Source: a virus (Duplodnaviria; Caudoviricetes). Taken from it: a DNA stretch of 64,000 bases. A model generated the notes under the pieces. It made no database searches, was not told the origin of the DNA, and saw only the letters and a list, made by a program, of their open reading frames with translations. Below, in pieces: positions 3,330-42,446 of this stretch. The translations under genes and the position numbers were made by a program. The number at the start of each line of letters is the position of its first letter. The first letter of the stretch is position 1. The stretch lies in IMG/VR virus record IMGVR_UViG_3300035703_002708. One strand, written 5' to 3'.

Positions 3330-3535
3330 AAACCGTCAAAGAAAAAAAAGAAACTTCCTTGGACATTATTCGTTGCAGGTGCTGGTTGTAATAAGAAGGT
3401 TATCGGTTGACCTTCAAACCAATATTCCTCAGAGCCGGTATTTAAAGTCGAATTTACAGTTCCGAACGACCTACCTTCGAACCAATATTCCTCTAAATTA
3501 TCATCATCTATGTAATCCATTATGTCACACTCCAA
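3326..3535 (-). CDS. Small hypothetical protein at end of fibre operon
   Basis: 69 aa; internal EEYWFEG duplication; C-terminal FFFFFDGF; overlaps the upstream minus-strand gene. Confidence 0.55.
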   Translation of the reverse strand: MECDIMDYIDDDNLEEYWFEGRSFGTVNSTLNTGSEEYWFEGQPITFLLQPAPATNNVQGSFFFFFDGF

Positions 3536-9300: not shown

Positions 9301-12300
9301 TCTATTTGTTCCGTTCCATGCAACTCCTGATGTTAAAGTAACCACACCTGTTACTCCACTTAATCCTAGCGAAAATCCACTTTCTCTACCAAATCTGTTA
9401 ACGGCAACAATTCTATTACTAATCTTATTTGGTAGACCAGCACCCTCATTTCCGAAATCTAATACGTGAACAAAATTATCTGCCCTATAAATCAAATAAC
9501 ATAAGTCAACATCACTTCCATTTATAAATGAATTATCTGTAGAAACTCCCCATCTTGGAGAACCATTATTATATTCAATATAGATGTAATTTGTGTCGTT
9601 ATTAGTTAGTGCGGCAATTCCTCCACTACCTGTCACACCACTTGATACCGTGTAAACTTGTACAGGTTCCGTGTATGATGAGTTATTGTATAAAGCAACT
9701 TGTACCGCCGGTAAATTTACCGAACCATTTCCATTACTAACCCAATTTGAAGAACCTGATAAAATACCTGAACTATACGTTGCAGACCCTGTAACGGTAA
9801 ATGTTCCACCTGTGTTATTTCTGAAAGTAGTATTACCATTTGAATATGTTCCACCTGTAACTCTTATATCGGTTGGTAGATTTTGATATGTTGTGGCAGA
9901 AATAGTTGTTGCAGTTACACCATTTAAGTTGATGTTATTATCTAAATTAAACACAACGGTAGATGTCCCTGAAATACTTGAACTGATGTTTGTTCCTCCT
10001 GATAAAATCAGAGTTGCGTTTGGATTAGGTGCTGTAATAGTGGTTGCGGTTGAATCTCCTTGTATAGTTGTCCAAGAATTTGATGGAGGTGCTGATGAAG
10101 TCCCTTCTACAAATTCGAACAAATCAAAATAATATCTTGATTGTGCACCAGTTCCTTGTGGAGAAAAGGACGCCTCTAAAACCTGAACATTTGTATTAGT
10201 TAAATAAAATCTCCAAAGAGGTATTGATATCAACTGCCAAGTTGAAACATTAGTTGGACTATATTGAACTACGTTAGCGGTTCCTGCTCCGTTCATAGTA
10301 ACAACTGAACCATTTTGTGTTCCGCCAGTAGTTAAAAATCTGAACCTGATTAAACTTGTTGTTGTGTTTGCAGATAAGTTTCTTATTGCAAACTGTAAAG
10401 TAGAGTAATTGTTTGTATTAAGTTCAGTTAAACCCGTTAATCTGAAAAAAGTTGTATACGCACCTGTAACACCACTTACTCTAATTGATGTTCCACCACT
10501 ATAAGTTACACCTGTAAAATTTCCAATAATTCTTGTTGGTTGTACACCACCAGAACCAAATGTCCATTCACTCGGTGGACCTGAATTTTCGTTATAAATT
10601 ACAAAAGTAGATACGTCTGCGGATGTACTATTGGCTCTTACCAAAACAAATGTGACTTCTATTTCCGTATCACCATCAACTAATGGTTTTTCTGGATTGT
10701 CTGAAGGTGTTCCTTGTAAGACTCCTGTATTACCACTTATGTCAGCGTAAATTACATCAATTCTATCAAATGTGGAATCACCACTTGACAAGGTAACAGT
10801 AGTTTCTGCACTTATTGTGTAAATTTGACCATTAATTAAGTACTCCAAAGGACTAACACTAAATGTTAATCCACTTACATAAGAAACACTACCATTAAGT
10901 AATTTATTACCTTGAACAACTAAATTCCAAAGTGTAAAATTTTGTTCATTTACACCTAACTCTATTGTTTGGTTTTGAGATGTTACCGAAACTTTATTTG
11001 TTGTATCTGAAGTAATTGATTTTATGTTAATTACTTTGTCTGTTGTGGAATCGTAAATAGAAGTGCCACTACCAACAGATGTTGCACCTGTTATTGATGG
11101 AGAATAACCACTTAAATTGACACTAAAACCTGAATATTGACTATTTGTATTTTGAGATAATGTTAAAACATCATTTGTCAAACTAAAACCTGTAACAAAT
11201 GTATCACCTGTCCCACCTTGTGAAACCGCAAGTCCCACTTGTTTTGCAACAATAATTACGGATGGTGAATCTGGTCTTGTTGGAGTTGTTAATCCTGATA
11301 GTGCGGTTAATTGAACAAATTCATTATCTGAAGAAAAGTAAAATTCAACATAATCGTTCGCATTTAATTCAAATATGAATGAAACAAATGGTAATTGTAA
11401 AACACTATTCGAAACTAAACCTAAAGTCGATGAACTTCTCGCAACAGGGTTTCCATTTATTGCCGCCCAAATTGTAACGATAGCCCCCGCTCCCTGAGTT
11501 TTCTCAATTTGAGGTGAATATCCTATTTCATAAACACCTGTGTTAGCAACCGTGATTTTTGTATTATCAACTACTGTAATACCATTAGATAATTCGGTGC
11601 GATTATATTTCCACACCGTTGGGGTATTTGCACCGCTTAAAGGTTGGTTTGTTGAGTCTGAGAAACTTCCGTAGTAATTTGCTGAGAAGCCCGTAGCAGT
11701 CAATCCTGTTACAACAAAGGTCGAACCTGAATTATTTGTAAAAGTTATTTGACTACCATTATAAGTTCCACCGGTTACAAATGTGTCTCTCAAACCTGAA
11801 ATCGGTATTGGGTTACCATTTGAATCTGTTAAAGTTAAGGTACCGCCCGAAAATGTATTTCCGGTGTAAGTAAATGCTCCTCCTGTGATAGATGTACCAC
11901 TTCCGCTACCACCACCTCCAGTTCCTGCTGAAAATATGAGTGTATTGTTGGTACCTGACGAGATTGTTACATTAATACCGCTGAAATTAATAAATGTGTT
12001 TGTATTTGCAGAAAACTGTGGAACACCATCAATTTTAACCGTATTGAATACGTGAGTCAGACCACTACCATTTCCATAAATTGTAGAACCTGAAATAGCA
12101 CCATCTGCACGAATAAAAGAAGTTACGGTACCAGCGGCATTCTCTCCTTGAAGTAGATGACTTACGTTGTCCGCGTTTCCCGTACCATTTTTAATTGATA
12201 CACCATCCAAGGTCGAATTGATTACAATCTCAGGCTCTACCGAATTGTCGTAGGCTTGTTGTAGGTTAGTTGTTGATATACCACCCGATGCTCCAACAGT

Positions 12301-26747: not shown

Positions 26748-26770
26748 TTTCGGACTCTCTTTTGTTTTTT
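26748..26770. terminator. Bidirectional intrinsic terminator
   Basis: aaaagagagt-tttcgg-actctcttt between convergent genes. Confidence 0.8.
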
Positions 26771-29354
26771 ACCTCAACAAGTTGACAATACCTTTTTGTT
26801 CGTGGTATTGTTGTTTCACATCTCTATATACTATTTCATAATAATACACACCTGTAGGAACCTCTTTACCCCCATATTTACCATCCCAACTCATAGTAAC
26901 ATCATAAGACCTATATAATACTTCATTCCACCTATTATATATAACCATATAAAACTCCTCGATACGAGATGAAGCTACGGCAAAAAACTCATTATTGAAG
27001 TCCCCATTTGGTGTGAATGTGTTTGGAACATATAAAACTGATAACGGATAAATCAATACACAGTTTTCAGCGGAATCGACACAAGTAGGAATACCTGTTG
27101 TATAATAAGCCTTTGTTTCTAACTTAATACAATAATTTCCTGGCCCCAAATATGTATGTGATGGGTTGTCAGTCTGAGATGAGTCTCCATCACCGAAATC
27201 CCAAATATAAGATTGACCATCCTGCGATAAATTAAAAAAATCAAATGTAGGTTTTAATATATCTGTTATATTTCCACCCAATGTTGTAAATGACGCTGTC
27301 GGTGTTTTATTTATAATGATGTGATTTGGTTTTATAAGTGAGTCCACACAACCCTTATCTGATGTTGCAATTACTTTTAATGTAAAGACCCCTTCATTAT
27401 CATAACAATTTGTGAAACTTGTTTGAGTAATCCAATTTGGTTCTCCGATACTCCACTGATATGTATAATTTATTTGAGGATTAAGTATATCAAAATCAAT
27501 ACATTTAGGATGACAACCAGTTACGTCACTTTCAGTAAAATTTGGGTCAGGTAATGAATTTACGGTAATACCCTTCTGAAATGTCTGTTGACATCCATTA
27601 GCGTCGGTCAAGGTTGCAATATAAACTCCTGAGGCTGGTGGAATTACGTTGGAGTTATTGTTGTATGTTGTTGCGTCAAAAGGATTTGTCCAAACAATAT
27701 TATATGGTTGAATCGCATTTTGTTCAGATACAAATAAATTGGCTGGATACCCAAAACAAACTTCTTCTAACAATTGACCTTGTAATATAATATTATTAGG
27801 TTGACCAATATTGATACCCAAAGTAATATCACATGAGTTATCGTCTGTTACGGTGACTTGATAATACCCAGCAGTCACGTTTGTAAGATTTTGTGTGTTA
27901 TTTGGTGGCGGTATGTTCCATAAAAAAGAATAAGGTTGAGTTCCCCCATTTAAATCGATAGTTACAGTTCCATCTGAATACCCAAAACAAGTAGGTTCGG
28001 TCATAGATATTGTTCCACCCAAAGGTTGAGCAGGGCCCAAAACAAATATGTTTGGAACAATGTGTTCACACCCTTCATCATCGGTAATAAGTGCTGAGTA
28101 AGCGTTTGCTGGTAGATTATCGAAAAACCCTGTGTTATTTACAACACCATTTAACTCAAAAAGATAAGGTGGGGTTCCACCATTAGCAACAACCGTTATT
28201 GTCCCATCGTTGTCTCCAAAACATAACAAATTTGAGACAACAGGAGGAGTGTTTGTGATATTAGTTGGTTCTGAAATAATAACATTATGATTGTACGTAC
28301 ATCCATTATCATCTTCAACTATAATAAGATGATTTCCTGCCGGCATATTGTTATAAACACCAGTTGGTTGAGATACACCATTTAAAGTATATGTGTAAGG
28401 AATTTGTCCACCGGCAGAAGTAATCTCAAATGAACCATTTGATTCACCAAAACATACATTATCTACCAAATTTATTGTGTTATTAACTACAGGTGTATTT
28501 TCTCCAACAACAACATTTAATACGTTTGAATTGCATGCCTCATCATCGGTACAAGTAACTACGTAAGGACCTGGTGATAAATTTGTAACAGGAAAATTAA
28601 CAGGATTACCATCTAAAAAGAATTGGTATGGTGCAGTTCCTTGATTTACACTTACATCTATTTCTCCATCATTAAATCCACTACAAGTGGCATCTGTAAC
28701 TGATACCAAACTAATTACAGGGGGCGTAAGACAACCTAAAACTACGGTATTTGGTGATAACTGAAATTGATAAAATCCATTACATCCATTTGTCCCCCAA
28801 CTTCCTGCAAAACCATCACTAACAGGAGATACTTGCATCGAAAGTGATGCTCCTGCCGTATTACCCACTGTTGCCTCAAAACAAAAAGTCCAAGGACCTG
28901 TTCCAAAATCCCCCCAATCATCTGAACTTTGCCCATCGGTATTTAAATCAAAGAAAAAACCAGGACCAAATTGATTTCCGGCACCTCCAGCGGATGTAGG
29001 ATTACCGTTAAATGGGTTTGCTATCCATAACCACTGTCCTCCTGAACCATTACCACCTTGATTTGGTGGGTAAGTCGTAGGTGTAAGTGTTGTTAAATCC
29101 CAACCTGGTCCTACTGTTATATCAAAACCTTCTAACCAATTAGTTCCGATACCTGTGTTCCAATTGTTGAAGGTTACACAAAATTCTACTACTTGACCTG
29201 GTTCATAGCCACCCCCCGCAGGAAGAGGATTAACAACAACACTTTGGGTTCCCATACAATCGTTTTGTGAAAACCCAATAGTTGATAAAATTAAAAATAA
29301 AGATACAAATAAACTTTTTATTTGATTCCCATAGACTCTTGAAATTCTTTCCAT
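26769..29354 (-). CDS. T9SS type-B CTD (gliding-motility-associated CTD) surface protein with SprB-like repeats and PKD domain
   Basis: Signal peptide ending GFS|Q; about four D(A/V/P)TC.G..DG.I.....GGT.PY repeats; PKD YIWDFGDG..NPSHTY; LYVPNTFTPNGD.NN..F..IYNRW..WDG..PTGVYYY..KG.VNLLR. Confidence 0.9.
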   Translation of the reverse strand: MERISRVYGNQIKSLFVSLFLILSTIGFSQNDCMGTQSVVVNPLPAGGGYEPGQVVEFCVTFNNWNTGIGTNWLEGFDITVGPGWDLTTLTPTTYPPNQGGNGSGGQWLWIANPFNGNPTSAGGAGNQFGPGFFFDLNTDGQSSDDWGDFGTGPWTFCFEATVGNTAGASLSMQVSPVSDGFAGSWGTNGCNGFYQFQLSPNTVVLGCLTPPVISLVSVTDATCSGFNDGEIDVSVNQGTAPYQFFLDGNPVNFPVTNLSPGPYVVTCTDDEACNSNVLNVVVGENTPVVNNTINLVDNVCFGESNGSFEITSAGGQIPYTYTLNGVSQPTGVYNNMPAGNHLIIVEDDNGCTYNHNVIISEPTNITNTPPVVSNLLCFGDNDGTITVVANGGTPPYLFELNGVVNNTGFFDNLPANAYSALITDDEGCEHIVPNIFVLGPAQPLGGTISMTEPTCFGYSDGTVTIDLNGGTQPYSFLWNIPPPNNTQNLTNVTAGYYQVTVTDDNSCDITLGINIGQPNNIILQGQLLEEVCFGYPANLFVSEQNAIQPYNIVWTNPFDATTYNNNSNVIPPASGVYIATLTDANGCQQTFQKGITVNSLPDPNFTESDVTGCHPKCIDFDILNPQINYTYQWSIGEPNWITQTSFTNCYDNEGVFTLKVIATSDKGCVDSLIKPNHIIINKTPTASFTTLGGNITDILKPTFDFFNLSQDGQSYIWDFGDGDSSQTDNPSHTYLGPGNYCIKLETKAYYTTGIPTCVDSAENCVLIYPLSVLYVPNTFTPNGDFNNEFFAVASSRIEEFYMVIYNRWNEVLYRSYDVTMSWDGKYGGKEVPTGVYYYEIVYRDVKQQYHEQKGIVNLLR

Positions 29355-29815
29355 AATGTTTCTACTGAATTGTGAAATATCTCCGAAAACAAAGATGGTT
29401 CATAAGGTTTTTTCCTTAATGTCATTCCTGCTTCGTGTGGAGTTTTATCACCTTTTTTTCTATTACAGTTTCCGCAGCATGTAACCAAGTTAGTCCATCT
29501 ATTTGAACCTCCTCTTGATTTGGGTAATACGTGGTCAATCGTTAAATTTTTATTTAAACCACAATACACACACTGAAAACCGTCTCGTTTATAAATTCTT
29601 GCCCGATTAACTTTTAAATTCTTAACTCTGTATTTAACATAGTTTAATAATCTAATAATTAATGGACGAGCAAATTTAAATGAACCAGCATCAATCGGTT
29701 TTTCACCTTGTTTCAAAATCTCAGCCTTACCTTTATTAACAAGGTTAAATCCTCTAATAAGTGAGGTCACATTAAGAGGGCTGTAATCGGCATTCAAAAC
29801 TAATACTTTTTCCAT
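29318..29815 (-). CDS. HNH endonuclease (McrA-like)
   Basis: VLVLNADYSPL, RDGFQCVYCG, LTIDHVLPKSRGG..WTNLVTCCGNCN..KGD. Confidence 0.9.
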   Translation of the reverse strand: MEKVLVLNADYSPLNVTSLIRGFNLVNKGKAEILKQGEKPIDAGSFKFARPLIIRLLNYVKYRVKNLKVNRARIYKRDGFQCVYCGLNKNLTIDHVLPKSRGGSNRWTNLVTCCGNCNRKKGDKTPHEAGMTLRKKPYEPSLFSEIFHNSVETLWKEFQESMGIK

Positions 29816-30656: not shown

Positions 30657-30728
<72 letters not shown>

Positions 30729-30785
30729 CAAAAAAAATTAAAAAAAGTTTGTCTGTTAAAAACAAAACTATTATCTTTGTAAAAA

Positions 30786-30968
30786 ATGGGACAGTTCGTT
30801 ATCATAAAATTCATCAAAAATCAACAGGGAAAAGAGATGCCTGTGATAATTATAGATACTCATAATGAGGTCTTAGAGTTTGAGACATTCGAGGAGGCCG
30901 AAAAGATGAGAGATTTGATGGAAGCGAACTCAGATAGTGGATATCGTTACGAAGTAAAAAAAATATAA
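30786..30968 (+). CDS. Small hypothetical protein between tRNAs
   Basis: 60 aa; TATCTTTG at 30772-30779. Confidence 0.6.
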   Translation: MGQFVIIKFIKNQQGKEMPVIIIDTHNEVLEFETFEEAEKMRDLMEANSDSGYRYEVKKI

Positions 30969-30975
30969 AATATTT

Positions 30976-31052
30976 GGCCCCGTAGCTCAGTTGGATAGAG
31001 CAACAGCCTTCTAAGCTGTGGGTCGCACGTTCGAGCCGTGCCGGGGTCACCA
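30976..31052 (+). tRNA. tRNA-Arg (TCT)
   Basis: Acceptor GGCCCCG/CGGGGTC; ACAGC-CTTCTAA-GCTGT; encoded CCA. Confidence 0.95.
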
Positions 31053-31054
31053 TT

Positions 31055-31128
31055 GGACTTTTAGCTCAGTCGGTTAGAGCAACGGACTCATAATCCGTCG
31101 GTCGTTGGTTCGAGTCCAACAAGGTCCA
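31055..31128 (+). tRNA. tRNA with CAT anticodon (Ile2/lysidine or elongator Met)
   Basis: Acceptor GGACTTT/AAGGTCC; ACGGA-CTCATAA-TCCGT; overall resemblance to bacterial Ile2 but identity not resolvable by eye. Confidence 0.9.
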
Positions 31129-31144
31129 CAAAAGGAAATTTAAC

Positions 31145-31931: not shown

Positions 31932-32228
31932 ATGGAATTTCTGAAAAAAAACAAAGTAAAAACATTTGATGACTTGGTTTTCAAACCACATGGTAACACT
32001 TTTAATGTTGGTGCTGTTCAAGCCGTGATGGAATTTGATAACGGACACTCTATCTCCGTTGTTGGTGGTGGTCAAGGTCTATACGGTAATGGAGTGTCAA
32101 CATTTGAGGCTTGGGCTTCTTGGCAAGACGATGTTCAAGGATGGTTATCTAAAGATGAGGTAACTGAACTTATGTTAGAAACTCAATCAAAACCTAAACA
32201 CGTTCCTGTTATTGGATTCAATGGTTAA
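31932..32228 (+). CDS. Hypothetical protein
   Basis: In-frame ATG at 31932; YSISVVGG..GLYG..TFE-type phage motif (HSISVVGGGQGLYGNGVSTFE). Confidence 0.65.
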   Translation: MEFLKKNKVKTFDDLVFKPHGNTFNVGAVQAVMEFDNGHSISVVGGGQGLYGNGVSTFEAWASWQDDVQGWLSKDEVTELMLETQSKPKHVPVIGFNG

Positions 32229-32232
32229 TATT

Positions 32233-32595
32233 ATGAAAGTAATTATAGCAGGAAGTAGAACATTTGATGATTACCATTATCTTAGTATAATGTGTGACCG
32301 TATTTTTGGAATCAAAGATGATATTGAAATTGTAAGTGGTGGTGCAAAAGGTGCCGATAGTTTGGGAGAAAGGTATGCAAGAGAACGAAACCTACCACTT
32401 ACAATTTTTCCCGCTGAGTGGGATAAATACGGTAAGTCAGCGGGTTATAAAAGAAACTCACAAATGGCTGATTACTCTCATATGTTAATTGCATTTTGGG
32501 ATGGAAAAAGTAAAGGGACTCAACATATGATTAACCTTGCGGAAAAAAAAGGATTGATGGTTGAAGTTTATAACCCTTTTGAAATAGATTATTAG
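32233..32595 (+). CDS. SLOG-superfamily protein (YspA/DUF2493-like)
   Basis: MKVIIAGSR, IVSGGAKGADSLGE.YA, AEWDKYGKSAG..RN.QM, AFWDGKSKGT. Confidence 0.85.
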   Translation: MKVIIAGSRTFDDYHYLSIMCDRIFGIKDDIEIVSGGAKGADSLGERYARERNLPLTIFPAEWDKYGKSAGYKRNSQMADYSHMLIAFWDGKSKGTQHMINLAEKKGLMVEVYNPFEIDY

Positions 32596-32628
32596 TTTTT
32601 TTTTGTAAAAATTTACTATATTTGTAGA

Positions 32629-33045
32629 ATGAAAACTTACTTGTTTTTGGACGATTTCAGAAATCCTATGGACTGCATAAATTATATGCGTTTGAGGGTT
32701 GATGATTCAGCTATGTATAGTCGTGAAAAGTGGATTGTAGTAAGAAACTATGATGAGTTTGTGAATTACATAACAAATAACGGATTACCATATTTAATTT
32801 CTTTTGACCACGACTTGGCAGATGAACATTACGACCCATCTATGTATAGTGGGAATTATGATGATGTTGCTAAAAACTTTAAAGAAAAAACAGGTATGGA
32901 TTGTGCTAAATGGTTAGTTGATTATTGTTTAGATAACGAAAAACAATTACCAAAATTTGTTGTTCATTCTATGAATCCTGCGGGAACTAAAAACATCTCC
33001 TCATTATTAAATGACTTTAAAAAGTTTCAAAATTTTGAGATTTAA
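32629..33045 (+). CDS. Cyclic-phosphate-processing receiver-like domain protein
   Basis: LFLDDFRNP, VRNYDEF, ISFDHDL, GMDCAKWL, VHSMNPAG; TATATTTG at 32617-32624. Confidence 0.75.
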   Translation: MKTYLFLDDFRNPMDCINYMRLRVDDSAMYSREKWIVVRNYDEFVNYITNNGLPYLISFDHDLADEHYDPSMYSGNYDDVAKNFKEKTGMDCAKWLVDYCLDNEKQLPKFVVHSMNPAGTKNISSLLNDFKKFQNFEI

Positions 33046-33100
33046 TTTGTCAGAATCAGAAATGTTTGTTAATTTTGTCCAACTCTTAAAAATAAACCCT

Positions 33101-33235
33101 ATGAAAACTTTCTTTTTTAAATCAAATCCGAATGAACTTTCAACTTTGGCAATACTTATCCAGATGGGAATATTTGCAACCGTTGGGCTAGGGTCCATAA
33201 TCGCAATATTTGAGTTTATCGCACATGTTAGATAA
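33101..33235 (+). CDS. Small membrane peptide
   Basis: In-frame ATG at 33101; one hydrophobic helix. Confidence 0.5.
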   Translation: MKTFFFKSNPNELSTLAILIQMGIFATVGLGSIIAIFEFIAHVR

Positions 33236-33509
33236 AATTTTCAAATACATCTTTTTGACGGGGATTATCTTCACGTTTTTTGTAACTGCACAAACCTGTT
33301 CAAGACCGATAACTCATAATAGAACTTTATATCAAACTGATGTCGTTGTAGTTCATTTTGACTTAACAAGAGATACGGTAAGAAGAGTTGTCTTTTTTGA
33401 TTACTTACAAATTGACCATATGGATAATCTCGTCAAAAAAGATGGATTTGTTGTTGCCACCAAAGTAAAAAAATACAAATATTTAAATTCAGTAAAAAAA
33501 TCTTTATGA
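33225..33509 (+). CDS. Secreted hypothetical protein
   Basis: Signal ending FFVTA|Q. Confidence 0.6.
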   Translation: MLDKIFKYIFLTGIIFTFFVTAQTCSRPITHNRTLYQTDVVVVHFDLTRDTVRRVVFFDYLQIDHMDNLVKKDGFVVATKVKKYKYLNSVKKSL

Positions 33510-34168
33510 GTGTTTTGAAGCTTGATAGTTCATCCAAGATTTGGATAACATCAGACACCCATTACGGACACAAAAACATTTGTCGTGGCGTCACAGATTG
33601 GCGTCTACCTGATGGTTCTATACCCGTAGACCAAACAAGAGATTTTTTGAGTGTGGAAAAAATGAACTCGGCAATTCTTAACAACATCAATGAGGTTGTT
33701 GGTCAGGATGATATTTTGATACATCTTGGTGATTGGTCCTTTGGTGGGTTTGAGAACATTCGTAAATTTTGGGACCAAATAGTATGTAAGAACATTCATC
33801 TTGTTTTGGGCAACCACGACCACCATATTGAACGAAACAGAGATGGTTCACAGGGGTTGTTTAAAAGTGTAAGTGACTATTTGGAACTTACTGTACCTGA
33901 TGTTGCAAAATTCGTATTGATGCACTATCCACTTTCTTCTTGGAATGGTTTGAACAAAGGAGTAATCCACCTTCACGGTCACGTTCACCTACCAAATGAT
34001 AAAAAATTTGGTAAAGGTAAAAAGATGGATGTTGGTATGGATGGTTCAGAAGAATTTCGTCCTTACAACTTAATTCGTGAGATTGTTCCAATTATGAGAA
34101 AGCGTGAAGTAATGTCTGATATGGAATTTGACCACCATACAGATGAAATCAAAGGAATAGTAGGATAA
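33506..34168 (+). CDS. Calcineurin-like phosphoesterase
   Basis: SDTHYGH, HLGD, GNHD, MHYP, HGHVH. Confidence 0.9.
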   Translation: MSVLKLDSSSKIWITSDTHYGHKNICRGVTDWRLPDGSIPVDQTRDFLSVEKMNSAILNNINEVVGQDDILIHLGDWSFGGFENIRKFWDQIVCKNIHLVLGNHDHHIERNRDGSQGLFKSVSDYLELTVPDVAKFVLMHYPLSSWNGLNKGVIHLHGHVHLPNDKKFGKGKKMDVGMDGSEEFRPYNLIREIVPIMRKREVMSDMEFDHHTDEIKGIVG

Positions 34169-34173
34169 TAATT

Positions 34174-34296
34174 ATGGGTAAAACTTATCGTAATACAAAA
34201 AACGATTCGCCAAAACAAAAAAACAAAGGGAATCAAAGTAAAAACAAATCTTCCAATAAAAAAAATAACAAAAATAAGGGATTTGATGATGAATAA
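34174..34296 (+). CDS. 40 aa K/N-rich basic peptide MGKTYRNTKND...GFDDE
   Basis: Translated by hand; fills the gap between two operon genes. Confidence 0.5.
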   Translation: MGKTYRNTKNDSPKQKNKGNQSKNKSSNKKNNKNKGFDDE

Positions 34297-34309
34297 TAAA
34301 ATACAAAAA

Positions 34310-34909
34310 ATGGACAATACTTTTTTTTTAAATCAGAGTATGGTCTTCACGGAGCGCAGTCTATATTTCATTCATAATAATGAGGATAGTGTAGTAATGG
34401 ATATTTGTGAAGATTCTTTGATGAAAAGAACCGCCGAACTTTTAATAATGGAGGGTGACGATGTCTTAGAAATAGGTTTCGGTATGGGAATATTTTCTGA
34501 TTATGTACAAAGTAAAAACATCAAAACTCACGTAATTGTGGAAAGTCATCCAGAAGTTTTCGAGAAATTGGTGTCATGGTCTGAAAATAAAACAAATGTC
34601 AATCCAATTTTTGGGGATTGGATAGATGTTTTACCTGAAATATTATCTCGTCAATATGATAGTGTTTATTTTGACACACATTATGATTTCAATACAATGT
34701 TTTTTTTAAAAAAAATACAAAATAATATTAAAAAAAATGGAAGATACTCAAGGTACACTTTAGACTCAAATGACACTTCCGCATTTAGTCAAGAAACACA
34801 CGGAACAGGGTTTAAGGTTCTGTATCAAGAAGAACACCAGATAGAAGTTAACAAATGTAAAAACGATACTTCTCCATTTTCCATTCCAATATGTATACTT
34901 TCCAAGTAA
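34310..34909 (+). CDS. SAM-dependent methyltransferase, GAMT/RMT2-like
   Basis: VLEIGFGMG, HVIVESHPEV, GDW, YDSVYFDT; start may instead be 34283. Confidence 0.7.
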   Translation: MDNTFFLNQSMVFTERSLYFIHNNEDSVVMDICEDSLMKRTAELLIMEGDDVLEIGFGMGIFSDYVQSKNIKTHVIVESHPEVFEKLVSWSENKTNVNPIFGDWIDVLPEILSRQYDSVYFDTHYDFNTMFFLKKIQNNIKKNGRYSRYTLDSNDTSAFSQETHGTGFKVLYQEEHQIEVNKCKNDTSPFSIPICILSK

Positions 34910-34975
34910 AATACTAATTTTTTAAAAATATTTAAATTTAATCGGTATTTCAGATAATTTTTGTATATTTGTCAA

Positions 34976-36037
34976 ATGTTAGAAACCTTAGAGAAATATC
35001 ATAATGAGGGGTTACTTTATAAACAAGTACACCCCTCTTTACCTCTAACCATATGGAACTACACTGAAAAGGTTCAATATGAAGGGTTATGGGATGATAT
35101 TACTCTAATGTCAAGAGGATTAGTGACCGACGATAAAGGAAATGTAGTTGCGAGACCATTTAAAAAATTCTTCAATTTAGAGGAATCAAAACATACTCCG
35201 ACTGAAAAGTTTGATGTATATGAAAAGATGGATGGGTCTTTGGGAATATTCTTTTATTATAATGGTGGTTGGGTAATGGCGACTAGGGGTTCATTTACTT
35301 CTGACCAAGCGGTGAAGGGTTATGAAATGATGTTTAAATATGATTTTGCATCACTACATAAGGACTACACTTATCTATTTGAAATCATATACAAAACAAA
35401 CCGAATAGTGGTTGACTATGATTTTGAAGATGTGGTTTTGTTAGGTATGATAAATACCAAGTCAGGTTATGAGGTTGATTTATATAGTGGGTCCGTGGAT
35501 GTTAGATTAAAAAATCTGATAAACAATTTAGGTTTCAAAGTCGTAAAAAAATATGATGGAATAAACGATTATAATACCTTAAAATCTATGGTGAGAGATA
35601 ACGAAGAGGGTTTTGTTGTTCGTTTTTCCAACGGAGATAAAATGAAAATCAAAGGTGAGGAATATTTGAGATTACATAAAATAATGACTCAAGTATCTAC
35701 CACTTCTATATGGGAAGTATTAAGTAACGGTGATGATATAGATGTATTGTTAAAAGATGTTCCTGATGAGTTTTATAACAAGGTAAAAACTTATGTTGGT
35801 AAATTAAAATATGCACATTATCAAATATCTGAATACTGTGGTAAGTATCACGATAGTTATAGATATGGGAAATATAATGATAAAGAGGTGGAACCAACCA
35901 AAAAGGAGTTTGCTGAGTTTGTTCAGAAAAATTTTGATAAAAAAGAACTCCACGCCGTTATGTTCGCCATGTGGGATAAAAAAGATTATTCTTCCATAAT
36001 ATGGAAATTAATAAAACCAAAATATGAAAAACTTTAG
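34976..36037 (+). CDS. T4 Rnl1-like RNA ligase
   Basis: RGLV..ARPFKKFFN, motif I EKMDGS, ATRGSF, YLFEII, EEGFVV, KIKGEEY; TATATTTG at 34964-34971. Confidence 0.9.
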   Translation: MLETLEKYHNEGLLYKQVHPSLPLTIWNYTEKVQYEGLWDDITLMSRGLVTDDKGNVVARPFKKFFNLEESKHTPTEKFDVYEKMDGSLGIFFYYNGGWVMATRGSFTSDQAVKGYEMMFKYDFASLHKDYTYLFEIIYKTNRIVVDYDFEDVVLLGMINTKSGYEVDLYSGSVDVRLKNLINNLGFKVVKKYDGINDYNTLKSMVRDNEEGFVVRFSNGDKMKIKGEEYLRLHKIMTQVSTTSIWEVLSNGDDIDVLLKDVPDEFYNKVKTYVGKLKYAHYQISEYCGKYHDSYRYGKYNDKEVEPTKKEFAEFVQKNFDKKELHAVMFAMWDKKDYSSIIWKLIKPKYEKL

Positions 36038-36350: not shown

Positions 36351-37178
36351 TTTTTCGTTGATGTCGTAAAACCTACCTGTCTCAACCCACCTCAAAACTT
36401 GATAATTTGTTCCGGTCGCACTAAACCTACTCGGTTCAAAATCCTCAACTTTATTTATAAAACATTTATCCCAATTTTGTTTAGGAATTGAACTGGTTGC
36501 AATATCTTCAGAACTATATTTTCTTTCCATCGCAAATAACACAGGAAATTCCGATGTAAATTTTATGTCATCAACCTCATTCATCTGTGATAAGAATCCT
36601 TCAATAACAGATTCCAAATTTAAGTCATAAGCAATATAAGTGGTAACGAGTATTTCAGGAACCTCTTGAATATCCTCAACCTCACCATCTCCATCACATC
36701 TATGACAATTGTATTCTCCATCACCACCACAATTATCACATCCTAAATATCCCTCACCATCACAATACTCGCATTCTTCTTGTTCGGTATTTCCCTCATC
36801 ATCTTCTACATCAACTTTTCCATCACCACCACATTCATTACAACTTTCACTACCACTACCTCCACAGTAATCACAACTTTCGGTACCACCACCACCGCAA
36901 TAACCACACTCTACCATACCAGGTTCTTTACCGAAACAAATCATATCAAATGTGTAAAGGTTATTATTAATTGACCAATCAACTGTTTTTTTCTCAACAT
37001 TTCTTAACACCGCATCCAAATAAAAAGTTAATTTTATTGTTACTTCCAAAGGAAAATTTTGTGTAAATTGTTGGAAGGTTTTATTTGTTTTAATATAAAT
37101 GAAAAGTTGATTTAAATTCGTATAAGAACCCTCAGGTATCAATCTTGATAATCTTTTGGCGATGTTGTATAAATCCAT
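36339..37178 (-). CDS. Protein with six DnaJ-type CxxCxGxG zinc-finger repeats, no J-domain
   Basis: CGYCGGGG, CDYCGGSG, CNECGGDG, CEYCDGEG, CDNCGGDG, CHRCDGDG. Confidence 0.75.
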   Translation of the reverse strand: MDLYNIAKRLSRLIPEGSYTNLNQLFIYIKTNKTFQQFTQNFPLEVTIKLTFYLDAVLRNVEKKTVDWSINNNLYTFDMICFGKEPGMVECGYCGGGGTESCDYCGGSGSESCNECGGDGKVDVEDDEGNTEQEECEYCDGEGYLGCDNCGGDGEYNCHRCDGDGEVEDIQEVPEILVTTYIAYDLNLESVIEGFLSQMNEVDDIKFTSEFPVLFAMERKYSSEDIATSSIPKQNWDKCFINKVEDFEPSRFSATGTNYQVLRWVETGRFYDINEKLLD

Positions 37179-37200
37179 ATAATTTTTTCTTACATATAAG

Positions 37201-37214
37201 TATTTATATAAATA
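37201..37214. promoter_or_regulatory. Palindromic bidirectional late promoter TATTTATATAAATA
   Basis: Two inverted TATTTAT elements between divergent genes. Confidence 0.6.
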
Positions 37215-37222
37215 AAAAAGTT

Positions 37223-37831
37223 ATGAGCACATTTCAAAAACCATCGACAGGGAGTATTACAAAAAAAGACAACAATGTATTAGAATTTTCTAGTTTCAAG
37301 TTGGATAATATCAATTCTCCATTTGCTGGTGTTGTGACGGATGTATCACAAACAGATTGTGGAGGTAAAGTAAAGTTGAAGCATGTTTTCAATGGTAATA
37401 CTTTATATTCTAAATTCTGTAACGTCTCAACAATTTTGGTATCTAGGGGTGAAAATGTCAACGGTGGTGAAAAAATTGGAAAGTTCGGGGACAAACCTGT
37501 TGAGTATGTTTTGAGTGATGGAGGTAAAAACCTAAATCCTAAAGATTTTTTTGGTGAAGTTGAATCAAAAAAAACCGAGACTAACAAAGAAAGAACTTCT
37601 AAAAGTAGTGATTATAGAACAGAAAAGAAAAGAGGTTTGACCGTACCGCAAGAAATCGCAATAGATGCTATTAGTTTACCTTTGAAGATGGGTAAGGATT
37701 TCGCCAAGGGGTTAATCAGTAAACCGTGGCAAATGTTAAAAGATTTACCATCTAACATTTTACCAAAAAAAGAGGGGTTTGAAAGAGACCTCAACGAGGA
37801 AATAGAAAGAATAAAATCTTTATTAAAATAA
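37223..37831 (+). CDS. Degenerate M23-peptidase-like protein
   Basis: INSPFAGVV..KLKH..LYSKFCNV..VSRGENVNGGEKIG; HxH metal ligands absent. Confidence 0.6.
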   Translation: MSTFQKPSTGSITKKDNNVLEFSSFKLDNINSPFAGVVTDVSQTDCGGKVKLKHVFNGNTLYSKFCNVSTILVSRGENVNGGEKIGKFGDKPVEYVLSDGGKNLNPKDFFGEVESKKTETNKERTSKSSDYRTEKKRGLTVPQEIAIDAISLPLKMGKDFAKGLISKPWQMLKDLPSNILPKKEGFERDLNEEIERIKSLLK

Positions 37832-37881: not shown

Positions 37882-38052
37882 TTACTTACCCATTTTTTTA
37901 CACGAATCAACTTTACAAGAATCAACACGACAAGAATCAACTTGAGTTGAGTCAACAGCCGTAGAATCAGTTGATGGTGAAGTGGAATCAGAACCACCTG
38001 TGCAAGATGCGAGTCCAAGGACTACTACCAAAGAATAAAATAGATTTTTCAT
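37882..38052 (-). CDS. 56 aa lipoprotein with DST x3 and DSC x3 repeats
   Basis: Hand translation MKNLFYSLVVVLGLAS-CTGGSDSTSPSTDSTAVDSTQVDSCRVDSCKVDSCKKMGK; TATATTTG at plus 38084-38091. Confidence 0.75.
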   Translation of the reverse strand: MKNLFYSLVVVLGLASCTGGSDSTSPSTDSTAVDSTQVDSCRVDSCKVDSCKKMGK

Positions 38053-38190
38053 AGTTTTAATTAATTTATTAAGTTTACGATTTCAAATATAATTAACATT
38101 TTTTAAGAAGTCAAATATTATTTTTCAATTATTGATTTGGACTAAAGAAAAGTTTATAATACATTTGTAGTATACATAAAACAATAAACC

Positions 38191-38373
38191 ATGAAAAATC
38201 TAATTTTGAAGTCCGTATCAACAATTTTGTACTCGTTCTCGATTGCTCTTACTTTATTTTGTGTTTCAGGAGCAATCTGTTTCCCATCCCAACTTAATAT
38301 TACAATCGGTCTTGTTTCAATACTCACCTTTGGTTATTTTTCTTACCAATACTTTGACATACTAAAATCTTAA
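38191..38373 (+). CDS. Small two-TM membrane protein
   Basis: 60 aa hydrophobic; TACATTTG at 38160-38167. Confidence 0.6.
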   Translation: MKNLILKSVSTILYSFSIALTLFCVSGAICFPSQLNITIGLVSILTFGYFSYQYFDILKS

Positions 38374-38429
38374 TTTTTTTTATGTTTGGGTATTGACAAC
38401 TGAAAAAAAATACTTAACTTTGTCAAACA

Positions 38430-39128
38430 ATAATTCAGAAAGTTCTTTAAAGTATAAGTTACTGAAACAGTCTAGGTCCGTAGGGCTACTGTTGTATGTG
38501 AGGAAAGTGACTACGGGACTCCTTCGCATTTAAAGTGTAAGTGAAACATATTACCGCAGCGGTTATAGTAACAAAAGTAATTCAGAAAAGAGGTCTAGTG
38601 TGAACCTGACTAAATAGTATGACTTCGGTCATCGTTTTTGCGAGTCTGTAGCACGTTCTGAATTTTTTACGGTATGGCGGGGTAGACTGGAGAAGGCACC
38701 AGCTGAGTCTCATAAGCTCAACCACGCAGGTTCGATTCCTGCTCCCGCAACTAGTGACCCGTTTACGGTGGAATCGGATGAAGCCACCTAATTTTTCGGG
38801 ATGACGAAAAAAAACAAAAAAAAGAATGTGTCCGGGGGAGTTTTGTTTAATATTTAGGCTCTTGTTATGTGTTTCACACCCCTCACCCGTGAAATCAGAA
38901 AAAAAAGACCACCTTTTATAGTGTGTGCGTAGATGTGATAACCACACCTTTCGTTTGAGGTTCATCAAAACGAATAAAAAATGGGCTTAGTCACCCATTT
39001 AACACATCCGTCGAGTGGTCGAACGATTCGAGTTAATTGCTCACTACAATTAAACTTGGGTTTATTGGAAACCTAACCACAAAACCAATAGCCAAATAAG
39101 GGTTATCACTTCGGTGGTTACCCTTTTT
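38430..39128 (+). ncRNA. Putative long structured non-coding transcript with embedded tRNA
   Basis: TAACTTTG at 38415-38422; boxA-like GTTCTTTAA at 38442; more than ten GC-enriched hairpins; no credible ORF; UUCG-capped terminator at about 39098-39130. Confidence 0.5.
38676..38750 (+). tRNA. Atypical initiator-like tRNA (CAT)
   Basis: GGCGGGG/TCCCGCA with 1:72 G-A mismatch; TGAGT-CTCATAA-GCTCA; GCAGG-TTCGATT-CCTGC; shifted D-stem CTGG/CCAG. Confidence 0.85.
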
Positions 39129-39154
39129 TTATTTTATATAAATTGTAAGAAACA

Positions 39155-39190
39155 AAAAAACCCCATTCCGAAAAGGAATGAGGTTTCAGA
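39155..39190 (-). terminator. Terminator after tmRNA
   Basis: aaaaaaaccccattcc-gaaaa-ggaatgaggttt. Confidence 0.7.
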
Positions 39191-39561
39191 TGGTGGAGAT
39201 GCGGGGTGCTGCCCCCCGGTCTTGCTCACTTTGGTAATTAAGGACTACGTAAATAGGTCAACATTAGTTCTTAATGTTCCGAAATATTGATTTTCTTACT
39301 CAGAAAACCACAAACGAGTTTTGTTTCTTTTAGGATAGAAACCACACCCTACCAGTACTTCTGTTCCGAGGTTATATGTACGCCGACCCGAAGTAGTTTC
39401 GCCTTAGGCTACTGCTACAGTTTCAGAAGTACGAACAAGTCCTACAGCTGAAAGTTTGTTGATAACGTTTCCGTCTAATTGTTAAGTCAGTTTTACAAGG
39501 TTAACTCAGCCTCGTTACGCCCTTAATTAGCAACCGTGCCAATCGATGCTATGTCATCCCC
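39191..39561 (-). ncRNA. ssrA: tmRNA
   Basis: 5' GGGGATG pairs with 3' CATCTCC-ACCA (G3.U70); T-arm CGGGG-GGCAGCA-CCCCG; tag ORF 39472-39404 after UAGAC context encodes (A)GNVINKLSAVGLVRTSETVAVA*. Confidence 0.93.
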
Positions 39562-39565
39562 ATTA

Positions 39566-39596
39566 TGTTAAAGAACTTCTTTCTTCTACAAATATA
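39566..39596 (-). promoter_or_regulatory. tmRNA promoter TATATTTG plus boxA-like GTTCTTTAACA
   Basis: Plus strand caaatata at 39589-39596 and tgttaaagaac at 39566-39576. Confidence 0.6.
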
Positions 39597-39648
39597 CGAA
39601 CCTTTTTGGAAAAACCAAAAAGAATAAATATTTATCAATAAAAAATTT

Positions 39649-40983
39649 ATGACAAGTGAAGACCTCGATGAAGGAAGGAATGTTATTATCGAAAACGATG
39701 ATTACCTTTTCATGGAAATATTAAATGCCGAAACTGCAAGATACTATGGTAAAGATGATATTGCTTACCTTTGGGGAAGAAAATATAGAGAGGGTCATTT
39801 ATATTATTTGATTGATAAAAAATTCAGGGGAGATTCAATTTGGATTCATATTCCTCGTATGAGTTCTATAGAAATAGAAACCTTCGACGAGGAAGTTCTT
39901 ACTTTATCTGACCTATTGAGAAGACATTCATTTATTGAAAAATTCATTATGGATAAAGTCAATCCATTTGATATGAGCACTTATTATGCTTTGAAAGCGA
40001 TTGCTCAAGGGGTTCCACCTTTAAGTGATTGGTCAATGCAAAATGTTGATGACCTTATTAGTAATTTCAAATATATCAAAGGAAATCCAAGAAATTCTAT
40101 TGTAACTTTAAGATTTGATAATAATGAGGAATATTTTAGAACATTCGATGTTAGTGATGATACTGTTTGGTTTCTGAATAGAATTTTTAACTCTTATGAA
40201 GGTGGCTATGAATTTGTTGATTACTCTGACAATTATCAATGGACCGATGGTTACATTCTTACTTACAATTTGAATGACGAAAATAAAGAAAAAGTTAATG
40301 AAATATTAAAAGTATTAAAACCTGGTACCACTCTAACAGATAATGACCACGATAATGCGGAGTTAACTAAAATACTTGACAATTTCTACCCTGAAATTGG
40401 TGATGATTTAACTACTGAATATGCTCATTTAGAAAACCAAGCAAGAAACGAAAAAGCGAAGGAAGAAATAACTGATGAATTTTGTAACATATACGAAAAA
40501 TTTAATATATTCGTGAGAAGAGGTTGTTTTTGGGAATATACAACTCCTGTTTGGAATTTAGTTAGGTTATACGAATCAAAACAATTATTCAATACAGATT
40601 TATTGGGACTAATCTCTGCTATAGGTCATACATTAAGTGTGACCGATTGGTATGAATATATGTATGAAATTTATGGTGATAATTTTGATGACGAACAATT
40701 TAACAGAGAAGCCGCAAGGACCTTGGATAAAGTCATAGAAAAGTTAGAAGAACAAAATTTGGATAAAGTAAAAAAGGTTTACAATGAAATTTCCAAAAAA
40801 TTCAAGTTTGAAAGATGGTATGATTTTCCGGTTGACCCCAAGAAAAGTTTTTATATGAGAAAAATAGATTTGGAAACAGGAAAATTGGATGTTAATTTGA
40901 GAGGCGTCGGTATCAACAGTTACCGAACTTTGATGGAACTCGAGGATTTTTATAACCTGATTTATAATTATTCTTTGTTTTAA
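39649..40983 (+). CDS. Hypothetical acidic protein
   Basis: 444 aa; TATTTAT at 39629-39635. Confidence 0.75.
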   Translation: MTSEDLDEGRNVIIENDDYLFMEILNAETARYYGKDDIAYLWGRKYREGHLYYLIDKKFRGDSIWIHIPRMSSIEIETFDEEVLTLSDLLRRHSFIEKFIMDKVNPFDMSTYYALKAIAQGVPPLSDWSMQNVDDLISNFKYIKGNPRNSIVTLRFDNNEEYFRTFDVSDDTVWFLNRIFNSYEGGYEFVDYSDNYQWTDGYILTYNLNDENKEKVNEILKVLKPGTTLTDNDHDNAELTKILDNFYPEIGDDLTTEYAHLENQARNEKAKEEITDEFCNIYEKFNIFVRRGCFWEYTTPVWNLVRLYESKQLFNTDLLGLISAIGHTLSVTDWYEYMYEIYGDNFDDEQFNREAARTLDKVIEKLEEQNLDKVKKVYNEISKKFKFERWYDFPVDPKKSFYMRKIDLETGKLDVNLRGVGINSYRTLMELEDFYNLIYNYSLF

Positions 40984-41897: not shown

Positions 41898-42446
41898 ATG
41901 AAACTGATAAATTTACTGACTCGGATAATATCTGAGCAACCCGCTTTTCAAAAAAGACTACTTATAAAAGGTCTAGTTTTAAGTGAAATTTTCGATGGTA
42001 ATATATTCGAATTATATACAGGTCAGCATGGGGTAGACCGAGCCATAAGAGAAGAAAATACATCTGAAGTTACCAAATATGACATTATTGATAAATTTAC
42101 AAGGGCAATACCTGAATTGAATAAAAGATTTTTCGGTATGATAAGAAATGCTAAAAGTCCAATTATTGATGGTAAATATTTTTTCAGGGACTTCAAATCA
42201 GGTGGTCCGAGAGAAGAAAAATCTCCAAGGTTTGTAGTTGTAGAACAAAAAGATGATTTTTTTCAAATGGTACTTATGGTTAAGAACTACGACAAAAATA
42301 GTAATTACATATCGTTTGAGATAGTCACTATTTTGAAAAGTGGTGAACCCCTATATAATTTATATAATCCTAAACATCACGTTCTCAAGTATAATATTTT
42401 TTTAGAACATGTTGGTGTTTCAGAAATAATTCATATATTTGTGTAA
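41898..42446 (+). CDS. Hypothetical protein with LLTRIISE|Q leader
   Basis: 182 aa; TATTTAT at 41887-41893 is 4 nt before ATG. Confidence 0.7.
   Translation: MKLINLLTRIISEQPAFQKRLLIKGLVLSEIFDGNIFELYTGQHGVDRAIREENTSEVTKYDIIDKFTRAIPELNKRFFGMIRNAKSPIIDGKYFFRDFKSGGPREEKSPRFVVVEQKDDFFQMVLMVKNYDKNSNYISFEIVTILKSGEPLYNLYNPKHHVLKYNIFLEHVGVSEIIHIFV

Follow-up and report, generated by a model that had tools for sequence, protein, structure and literature searches.

Does a stretch of some 700 nucleotides (nt) that lacks open reading frames (ORFs), is dense in hairpins and encloses a transfer RNA (tRNA) encode one large RNA or several? The question is raised by positions 38,430–39,128 of a 64,000-nt DNA from a tailed phage (IMG/VR record IMGVR_UViG_3300035703_002708; Caudoviricetes), a DNA that is called the window here in its full length. 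An initial annotation, made from the letters of the window without database searches, described this locus as a candidate large ornate noncoding RNA (ncRNA), a member of a class such as GOLLD and ROOL or of a new one. Although cryo-EM structures of GOLLD and ROOL have recently appeared, these RNAs, which rank with the largest of bacteria and phages, still await a functional explanation. The comparative analysis reported here favors, with a probability of roughly three in four, a different anatomy: a modular ncRNA operon in which two leader domains (D1 and D2), a tRNA(CAU) cassette and a new structured RNA (R3) are arranged between a promoter and a terminator, and which, at a locus that has GOLLD in sister phages, represents the allele without it.

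Relatives of the locus were collected through contigs with homologues of a neighboring 444-aa protein (50–95% identity) and through conserved DNA words; this gave 38 loci (designated by L numbers), all of which derive from IMG/VR or lake metagenomes. L016–L018 share a 19-nt word with the locus but were set aside as chance matches within coding sequence. A search for related loci with the M23 peptidase ORF of the window as query found nothing, and a DNA search of GenBank phages returned tRNA-level matches only and no relative.

A structured RNA downstream of the tRNA

The region between tRNA and terminator, R3, carries the strongest comparative signal. In a MAFFT alignment (A4) of 28 distinct R3 sequences, evaluated with a 12-helix model, 93.4% of the cells are paired, compared with 40–51% when the pairing partners are slid; both sides have changed in 21 pairs (3–11 in slid controls), and doubly changed cells number 118 (5–32 in slid controls). 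An Infernal covariance model (R1) was used to realign 34 R3 matches, with 94.6% of cells paired (40–50% slid) and compensatory changes in 26 of 63 pairs among 31 distinct sequences; since the structure guided this alignment, the conservative figures are those from MAFFT. Covariation is found in helices P1, P2, P4, P5, P6, P7, and P9 (Table 1). P8 shifts register between lineages and is compensated by eye (GA to UC on the 5′ strand, with a complementary change on the 3′ strand); P3, P10, and P11 are invariant and therefore give no covariation signal. Most of the hairpins previously drawn after the tRNA gained support in this way: GGTGG/CCACC, TTTCAC/GTGAAA, GTGTG/CACAC, TTCGTTT/AAACGAA, AAATGGG/CCCATTT, and TAATTG/CAATTA show compensatory changes, whereas TATTGG/CCAATA is present but invariant. 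The G-U pairs of R3 fit the plus strand only.

Divergence of R3 is graded (65–99% identity), and its helices are kept by compensatory changes throughout this range. Model R1 gives 434 bits for the window and 285–453 bits for 31 other loci, every match lying directly 3′ of the GCAAC that ends the tRNA cassette; the tRNA/R3 junction, GCAAC(U/A)AGUGA, is invariant. The last 90 nt before the terminator form a near-invariant core (CCGUC..GUGGUCGAACG, the P9 loop CUCACUA, and ACUUGGGUUUAUUGGAAACC.A.CCA.C..AACCAAUAGCC), the columns of which do not change across 28 sequences whose other helices vary freely; this core is proposed as the functional site of R3. One copy of R3 is found per phage record (a related IMG/VR record is 261 kb long and rated 89% complete), and R3 is known only from uncultured lake-phage contigs.

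Among the checks suggested in the initial annotation, collection of homologues and analysis of covariation gave the 38 loci and the compensatory changes in D2 and R3; the Infernal scan against Rfam returned no family for D1, D2, or R3, either at the gathering threshold or at E ≤ 10, and one weak tRNA. A match to sbrA (26 bits, cut-off 45) was rejected, as it covers the terminator hairpin only. The earlier view of a structured noncoding unit around a tRNA in a phage is upheld, and R3, the 3′ part of this unit, should be classed as a new family of structured RNAs linked to tRNAs in phages.

The leader domains D1 and D2

D2 was found in every locus for which the 5′ side was retrieved, in 20 distinct sequences. 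Its closing helix and its ATGAC-TTCG-GTCAT hairpin, both recognized in the initial annotation, covary: six pairs have compensatory changes (for example AAUUCAGAA/UUCUGAAUU vs. AAUUAGAAA/UUUCUAAUU), including UUCG-to-GAAA swaps of the tetraloop, and doubly changed cells number 40 compared with 0–6 in slid controls.

The helices described for D1 are present as well (predicted closing helix GUUAC/GUAAC), but they are invariant, so that the fold has no covariation signal. Wherever D1 occurs, its identity is 92.5% or more, including loci in which that of R3 is as low as 66%; D1 is missing in L013, L028, L020, L011, and L006, and it lies before D2 in the group of the window and after D2 in L025 and L015. 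The possibility that D1 is a multi-copy repeat element was rejected, since the window and every locus have just one copy. In L025 (oriented; about 2550–2610), D1 is followed by another motif that resembles a promoter, TTTG...TACCTTTG, and GOLLD is preceded by an additional boxA-like motif, UGUUCUUUGACA.

A GOLLD locus without GOLLD

GOLLD (RF02032) was detected with 304–330 bits (cut-off 150 bits) in L005/6, L008, L011, L012, L014, and L015, where it lies between the homologue of D2 and the tRNA; the distance between these two is 888–915 nt in the GOLLD-carrying relatives vs. 11 nt in the window. One of these relatives, L011, has a transfer-messenger RNA (tmRNA) that is 94% identical to that of the window. 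Because sister phages hold GOLLD at the D2/tRNA junction, the window is evidently a GOLLD-less allele of a GOLLD locus. The suggested kinship with the GOLLD/ROOL class therefore holds at the level of the locus, through the sister phages, but not within the window, where neither GOLLD nor ROOL has an Rfam match at E ≤ 10. In L032, the junction between D2 and the tRNA-like cassette is occupied by a 190-aa HNH_2 endonuclease ORF (2723–3295, minus strand). The last codons of this ORF extend into the cassette.

Module-by-module comparison gives the order promoter, boxA-like motif, D1, D2, GOLLD or the HNH gene where present, tRNA cassette, R3, and terminator; D2 and R3 are found in every locus as far as the available sequence reaches, and the remaining parts vary. 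Between L001, the nearest relative, and the window, the flanks of the tRNA are ~98–99% identical but the tRNA body differs in sequence, and in the R3 tree cassette types differ between nearly identical R3 sequences; conversely, the window-type tRNA (96–100% identity) and D1 recur in loci in which R3 is only 65–76% identical. R3 is 82–90% identical in relatives whose tmRNA is 73–74% identical, whereas the relation is reversed in L027 and L039 (R3 76%, tmRNA 94%), and these discordant identities again show separate module histories. R3 is also 82–84% identical where the neighboring 444-aa protein is only 50–53% identical. D1, D2, the tRNA cassette, and R3 thus differ in their evolutionary histories: the tRNA(CAU) cassette, D1, GOLLD, and the HNH endonuclease gene emerge from the comparison as interchangeable inserts, and D2 and R3 as the constant, structurally constrained parts. 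In the R3 tree, GOLLD occurs in basal clades and in one nested clade, a distribution that fits an ancestral GOLLD lost in the lineage of the window, the root of the tree being a midpoint only. Within the clade GOLLD is dispensable, since close relatives without it keep D2 and R3.

An initiator-like tRNA cassette

The tRNA of the window was detected by ARAGORN and, in an Infernal scan of 38000–39700, by the Rfam tRNA model RF00005 (criterion >29 bits); it was not listed in the whole-window scan at the gathering threshold. It resembles a bacterial initiator tRNA(fMet) in its CAU anticodon and in its acceptor end, which according to sequence and Rfam alignment has a G1:A72 mismatch, G2:C71, C3:G70, and A73 (the 1:72 position being unpaired in initiators as well). 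The acceptor stem GGCGGGG/UCCCGCA is close to that of E. coli tRNA(fMet). Differences from tRNA(fMet) are G1 in place of C1, an anticodon stem (UGAGU/GCUCA) without the three G-C pairs of initiators, a 4-nt connector to the D stem, a low Rfam score, and a 3′ end at which C74 is present (38751) but CCA is not encoded.

Five types of cassette (the window has type A) occur at the locus, all with CUCAUAA as anticodon loop and GCAAC as 3′ end. All five keep an unpaired or odd 1:72 position, A72, A73, and C74, and the cloverleaf is the minimum free energy fold of each. The L038 variant has a compensatory change from A-U to G-C in its anticodon stem. Types C and D alone are canonical, and GGG/CCC occurs in the anticodon stem of type D only. 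These five initiator-like tRNA(CAU) cassettes are swapped between near-identical R3 backgrounds (window, L001, L002, L005, and L011). Such exchange of five alleles points to strong diversifying pressure on a component of translation initiation, and it could reflect an arms race over initiator tRNA.

tRNA-like elements serve as RNA processing signals in eukaryotic systems, such as MALAT1-mascRNA and the tRNA punctuation of mitochondrial transcripts. By analogy, the cloverleaf that lies between two noncoding RNAs in the phage operon could direct cuts by RNase P and RNase Z, and cassette types B and B′ resemble tRNA-like elements more than canonical tRNAs. The suggestion of the initial annotation that the tRNA may be a processing signal is plausible, with a cloverleaf kept in all five cassette types. 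Unlike in those systems, the anticodon loop at the phage locus is strictly conserved; because of this conservation, a role in decoding or in binding of methionyl-tRNA synthetase is also indicated.

Boundaries of the operon and the convergent tmRNA

All of the elements that the initial annotation had assembled into a noncoding transcript (promoter, boxA-like element, domains, hairpins, tRNA, and terminator) were found at their positions, together with the convergent tmRNA gene (Table 1). L001 and the window are similar from the −35 element as far as the terminator, and the DNA beyond either end is unrelated; the unit is therefore taken to extend from promoter to terminator. The promoter motif is kept in all relatives; conservation begins exactly at TTGACA, and the sequence upstream diverges at once. 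The second promoter element, TAACTTTG, fits the Bacteroidota −7 motif TAnnTTTG, and transcription would start at about 38428–38431. The promoter is absent from the output of a σ70 consensus scan. At the other end, a G+C-rich hairpin is followed by a run of U residues, as expected of an intrinsic terminator; its stem has one U-U mismatch in the window, and the helix (alignment columns 366–389) is paired in 97–98% of cells. The terminator was not listed on the plus strand by a consensus scan, probably because of internal U-U and G-U pairs. The sequence that follows it varies among relatives, being either the tmRNA directly or 0.4–3 kb of other genes; in L001 an extra 500-aa GDSL/PG-binding/SLT gene (3371–4873) lies between the R3 terminator and the tmRNA.

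The boxA-like motif is preceded by a first copy of AAUUCAGAAA (38432–38441) and has GTTCTTTAA (38442–38450) as its core word. GTTCTTT(A/G)A is present in the leader of every relative, either after the promoter or right after D2. The word GTTCTTTRA occurs four times in the window, which is no excess over the 3.15 expected by chance; two of the four occurrences are in the leaders of the two stable-RNA genes, where the motif is kept in all relatives. Consensus boxA sequences are UGCUCUUUAACA in E. coli and AUGAUCUUUGAAA in B. subtilis (PMC13753749). The motif matches the E. coli consensus, which may not be that of the host, at 8 of 12 positions in the window and at 10 of 12 in L042 (UGUUCUUUGACA). 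This putative site resembles the boxA of rRNA operon leaders, the site of NusB-S10, in sequence (AGUUCUUUAAAG compared with UGCUCUUUAACA and AUGAUCUUUGAAA) and in its place in the leader of a long untranslated RNA; its setting differs, being an ncRNA operon and a tmRNA gene of a phage. The promoter of the tmRNA, which ARAGORN missed, is of the Bacteroidota type (TTTG-N19-TATATTTG). On the minus strand, R3 helix P7 resembles an intrinsic terminator in the consensus scan; it could be a back-up stop for read-through from the tmRNA gene.

Table 1. Positions in the window of the features of the ncRNA operon and of the convergent tmRNA gene.
Feature	Position	Strand	Basis and details
Promoter-to-terminator ncRNA unit	38393–39130	+	convergent with phage tmRNA
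Promoter	TTGACA 38393–38398; TAACTTTG 38415–38422	+	spacer 16 nt; sequence; conserved among relatives
boxA-like motif AGUUCUUUAAAG	38441–38452	+	conserved in every relative
D1	38453–38575	+	near-invariant optional module; BLAST unit 38443–38578
D2	38579–38664	+	closing helix 38579–87/38656–64; invariant core GGUCUAGUGUGAACCUGA; tetraloop hairpin 38619–32
Initiator-like tRNA(CAU) cassette, type A	38676–38750	+	ARAGORN; Rfam tRNA 32.7 bits
R3 structured RNA	38752–39099 (to 39130 with terminator)	+	~350 nt, at least 10 helices
R3 helix P1	38758–61/38797–800	+	alignments A4, A5
R3 helix P2	38767–71/38784–88	+	alignments A4, A5
R3 possible pseudoknot P3	GGGG 38834–37 with CCCC 38879–82	+	invariant
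R3 helix P4	38872–77/38889–94	+	alignments A4, A5
R3 helix P5	38923–27/38943–47	+	alignments A4, A5
R3 helix P6	38950–56/38968–74	+	alignments A4, A5
R3 helix P7	38979–85/38994–39000	+	alignments A4, A5
R3 helix P8	39011–16/39026–31	+	alignments A4, A5
R3 helix P9	39033–39/39047–53	+	alignments A4, A5
R3 helix P10	39058–63/39069–74	+	alignments A4, A5
R3 possible pseudoknot P11	AUUGG 39064–68 with CCAAU 39085–89	+	invariant
R3 near-invariant core	39005–39095	+	
Intrinsic terminator	39100–39130	+	10-bp stem with UUCG loop 39100–39123, then U7
Phage tmRNA	39191–39561	−	Rfam RF00023, 77 bits
boxA-like motif AGUUCUUUAA of tmRNA	39568–39576	−	7 nt upstream of tmRNA 5′ end; conserved in 11 distinct relatives

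A model for the operon and its alternatives

In the model that is proposed for this modular operon, host RNA polymerase would start transcription near 38430 from the conserved promoter, and the boxA-like motif would recruit NusB and S10, which would keep Rho from terminating the lengthy untranslated transcript, in the manner known from rRNA operons. The tRNA cloverleaf would then be cut by RNase P on its 5′ side and by an RNase Z-type activity on its 3′ side (the latter is proposed because CCA is not encoded), freeing three products: R3, an initiator-like tRNA that accepts Met, and the leader, which would comprise D1-D2 in the window and D2-GOLLD in relatives. Shuffling of the inserts would be the work of homing endonucleases and of recombination among phages that infect the same cell. 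A specific trans-acting role for R3 is a tentative proposal, held at less than even odds: R3 may be a stable RNA that works as scaffold or decoy and binds a host or phage factor, most likely of the translation apparatus, through its invariant 3′ core (the P8-P9 loop together with a pseudoknot of GGGUUU/AAACCC and AUUGG/CCAAU). A role in translation is suggested by the neighborhood of an initiator-like tRNA, a tmRNA, further tRNAs, and RNA-repair genes. GOLLD has been reported to bind ribosomes in pull-downs (10.1101/2024.12.08.627333). A further-reaching and rather unlikely version of the model would make D2 and R3 a conserved chassis that takes up GOLLD and alternative initiator-like tRNAs, with R3 as a new ornate RNA acting on translation initiation together with the tRNA; R3 might do so by capturing or presenting the tRNA, by binding ribosomes or S1 via A-rich linkers, or by self-assembly in the manner of GOLLD and ROOL.

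Several results weigh against the modular operon with a processed, structured R3. Predicted folding energies are not beyond chance (z = +0.24 for the 5′ part, −2.0 for the 3′ part, and −0.9 for the whole against shuffled sequences; z = −0.67 for the opposite strand); because they are no better than those of shuffled sequence, the case for structure rests on the relatives. These are related by descent, so that shuffle controls inflate significance and slid controls are the fairer ones. R3 is confined to one phage clade and was absent from 185,579 species genomes in two pattern scans, and it does not lie beside GOLLD in two unrelated phages, the 635-kb megaphage LR745206 and Acinetobacter phage AM24; the idea of R3 as a general GOLLD accessory was rejected on the latter ground. 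Acceptor stems are irregular in cassette types B and B′, which are missed by ARAGORN and Rfam, and processing is less certain in the loci that carry them. The assignment of a host (see below) is indirect.

The alternative closest to the initial annotation is a single large, unprocessed RNA of which D2 and R3 are the two halves, with the tRNA (and GOLLD where present) embedded in it like the tRNAs in linker J13/15 of GOLLD. D2 and R3 do always co-occur on either side of the variable inserts, GOLLD RNAs have been reported to embed tRNAs (10.1101/2024.12.08.627333; PMC12990946), and GUGAACCUGA in D2 is complementary to UUGGGUUUAU in R3 over 10 positions, four of them G-U pairs. This complementarity, however, uses invariant columns and competes with P10, and a search for long-range pairing found no covarying helix between D2 and R3, only such invariant, wobble-rich complementarity. 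The distance between the two ranges from ~90 to ~1000 nt, a 0.9-kb GOLLD or the 0.6-kb protein-coding HNH gene being tolerated between D2 and the tRNA, and the discordant histories of the modules add to the case against a single ~700-nt ornate RNA, which is considered unlikely. It is distinctly improbable that R3 is a cis-acting 3′ element, whether it stabilizes the tRNA or GOLLD upstream of it or offers a platform for their processing, or whether it responds to a ligand and works with the terminator to control read-through into the convergent genes. Its invariant core does lie immediately upstream of the terminator, in the layout of an aptamer plus terminator, and the tRNA/R3 junction is invariant, but no co-oriented gene lies downstream, the content beyond the terminator is variable, no riboswitch family of Rfam matches, and ~350 nt with at least 10 conserved helices far exceed the needs of a 3′ stabilizer.

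R3 and D1/D2 might be non-functional remnants, for instance of a decayed tRNA array or GOLLD flank, that owe their similarity to recent horizontal spread, as would be consistent with the near-invariance of D1 across otherwise diverged loci and with the nature of the locus as a recombination hot spot; the graded divergence of R3 with helix-keeping compensatory changes, the like behavior of D2, and the higher conservation of R3 than of the 444-aa protein in the same relatives make this very improbable. That the stretch codes for protein, through a 128-aa minus-strand ORF (38582–38968) or small plus-strand ORFs, deserves almost no weight. The 128-aa frame is in the ORF list, and L001 retains a 119-aa frame, but the frame runs antisense through the tRNA, its translation is of low complexity, and it has no match in Pfam or PHROG. 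The longest open frame is not the same in strand, frame, or position from one lineage to the next, ATGs on the plus strand lack conservation, and no conserved ORF was found in the unit, in agreement with the original description of the stretch as ORF-free.

Relation to known RNAs and significance

The operon shares with GOLLD its phage context (T4-like genes) and its association with a tRNA (often tRNA-Met in the case of GOLLD), and in sister phages GOLLD is part of this same unit; HNH endonucleases are found in GOLLD arrays too, for example in Acinetobacter phage AM24. In contrast, the window has no match to the GOLLD model (150-bit threshold; E ≤ 10 in 38000–39700), and it lacks an RNA of at least ~800 nt with a variable 5′ and a conserved 3′ domain; R3 is ~350 nt long and its helices are unrelated. 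ROOL (RF03087) is likewise a large structured RNA of phages and prophages near tRNA islands, but the window has neither a covariance-model match to it nor any correspondence in sequence or helices.

Stable RNAs of the tRNA cluster of phage T4, species 1 and 2 (rnaC/rnaD; ~120–140 nt), share a transcript with tRNAs and owe their maturation to tRNA-processing enzymes of the host; a free-standing homing endonuclease gene, segB, lies in the same cluster. R3 may be comparable to them as a small stable RNA linked to a tRNA in a T4-type phage with a homing endonuclease nearby; it differs in its larger size and in the linkage of its locus to GOLLD and a tmRNA. The T4 RNAs and tRNA-punctuated processing may be the nearest functional analogies.

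What appears to be new is the R3 family, the D2 leader, and the exchangeability of GOLLD, an HNH gene, D1, and five tRNA alleles within one operon led by a boxA-like motif. GOLLD can reside in such an operon, punctuated by a tRNA, beside a second conserved structured RNA that was previously undescribed. A boxA-type motif in stable-RNA genes of a probable Bacteroidota phage would extend Nus-type antitermination to a new setting. If the chassis version of the model is true, comparison of near-identical phages that naturally have or lack GOLLD would give direct access to GOLLD function. A partner of R3, if found, could reveal the role of the whole RNA island during infection.

Phage, host, and neighboring genes

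The window has a G+C content of ~33% and encodes a T4-type terminase (TerL), gp20 portal and gp23 capsid proteins, a T4 Rnl1-type RNA ligase, a ClpB-like ATPase, and four tRNAs. Its source is evidently an uncultured T4-like jumbo phage of fresh water; by portal protein, its nearest relatives in culture, Microcystis phage Mel-JY01 and Flavobacterium phage immuto, are only 35–40% identical. A host in the Bacteroidota is probable because of the TAnnTTTG-type promoters and of an 861-aa protein (26769–29354, minus strand) that combines SprB repeats and PKD domains with a type IX secretion sorting domain, CHU_C.

Just upstream of the ncRNA operon is an RNA-repair-like cluster (32212–36037, plus strand), which comprises a YAcAr SLOG domain, a cyclic-phosphate-processing receiver domain, a metallophosphoesterase, a weak methyltransferase-like ORF, and the Rnl1-type RNA ligase. 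An HNH endonuclease gene (29318–29815, minus strand) adjoins three canonical tRNA genes (Glu, Arg, and Met) at 30657–31129 on the plus strand. On the other side of the operon, the 444-aa ORF (39649–40983, plus strand), which has no match in Pfam or PHROG, lies beside the tmRNA in all relatives. The window and L001 further differ by gene-sized indels, as the M23 peptidase ORF (37145–37831) and a 182-aa ORF (41898–42446) are missing in L001. A 2746-aa ORF is located at 6310–14550 on the minus strand.

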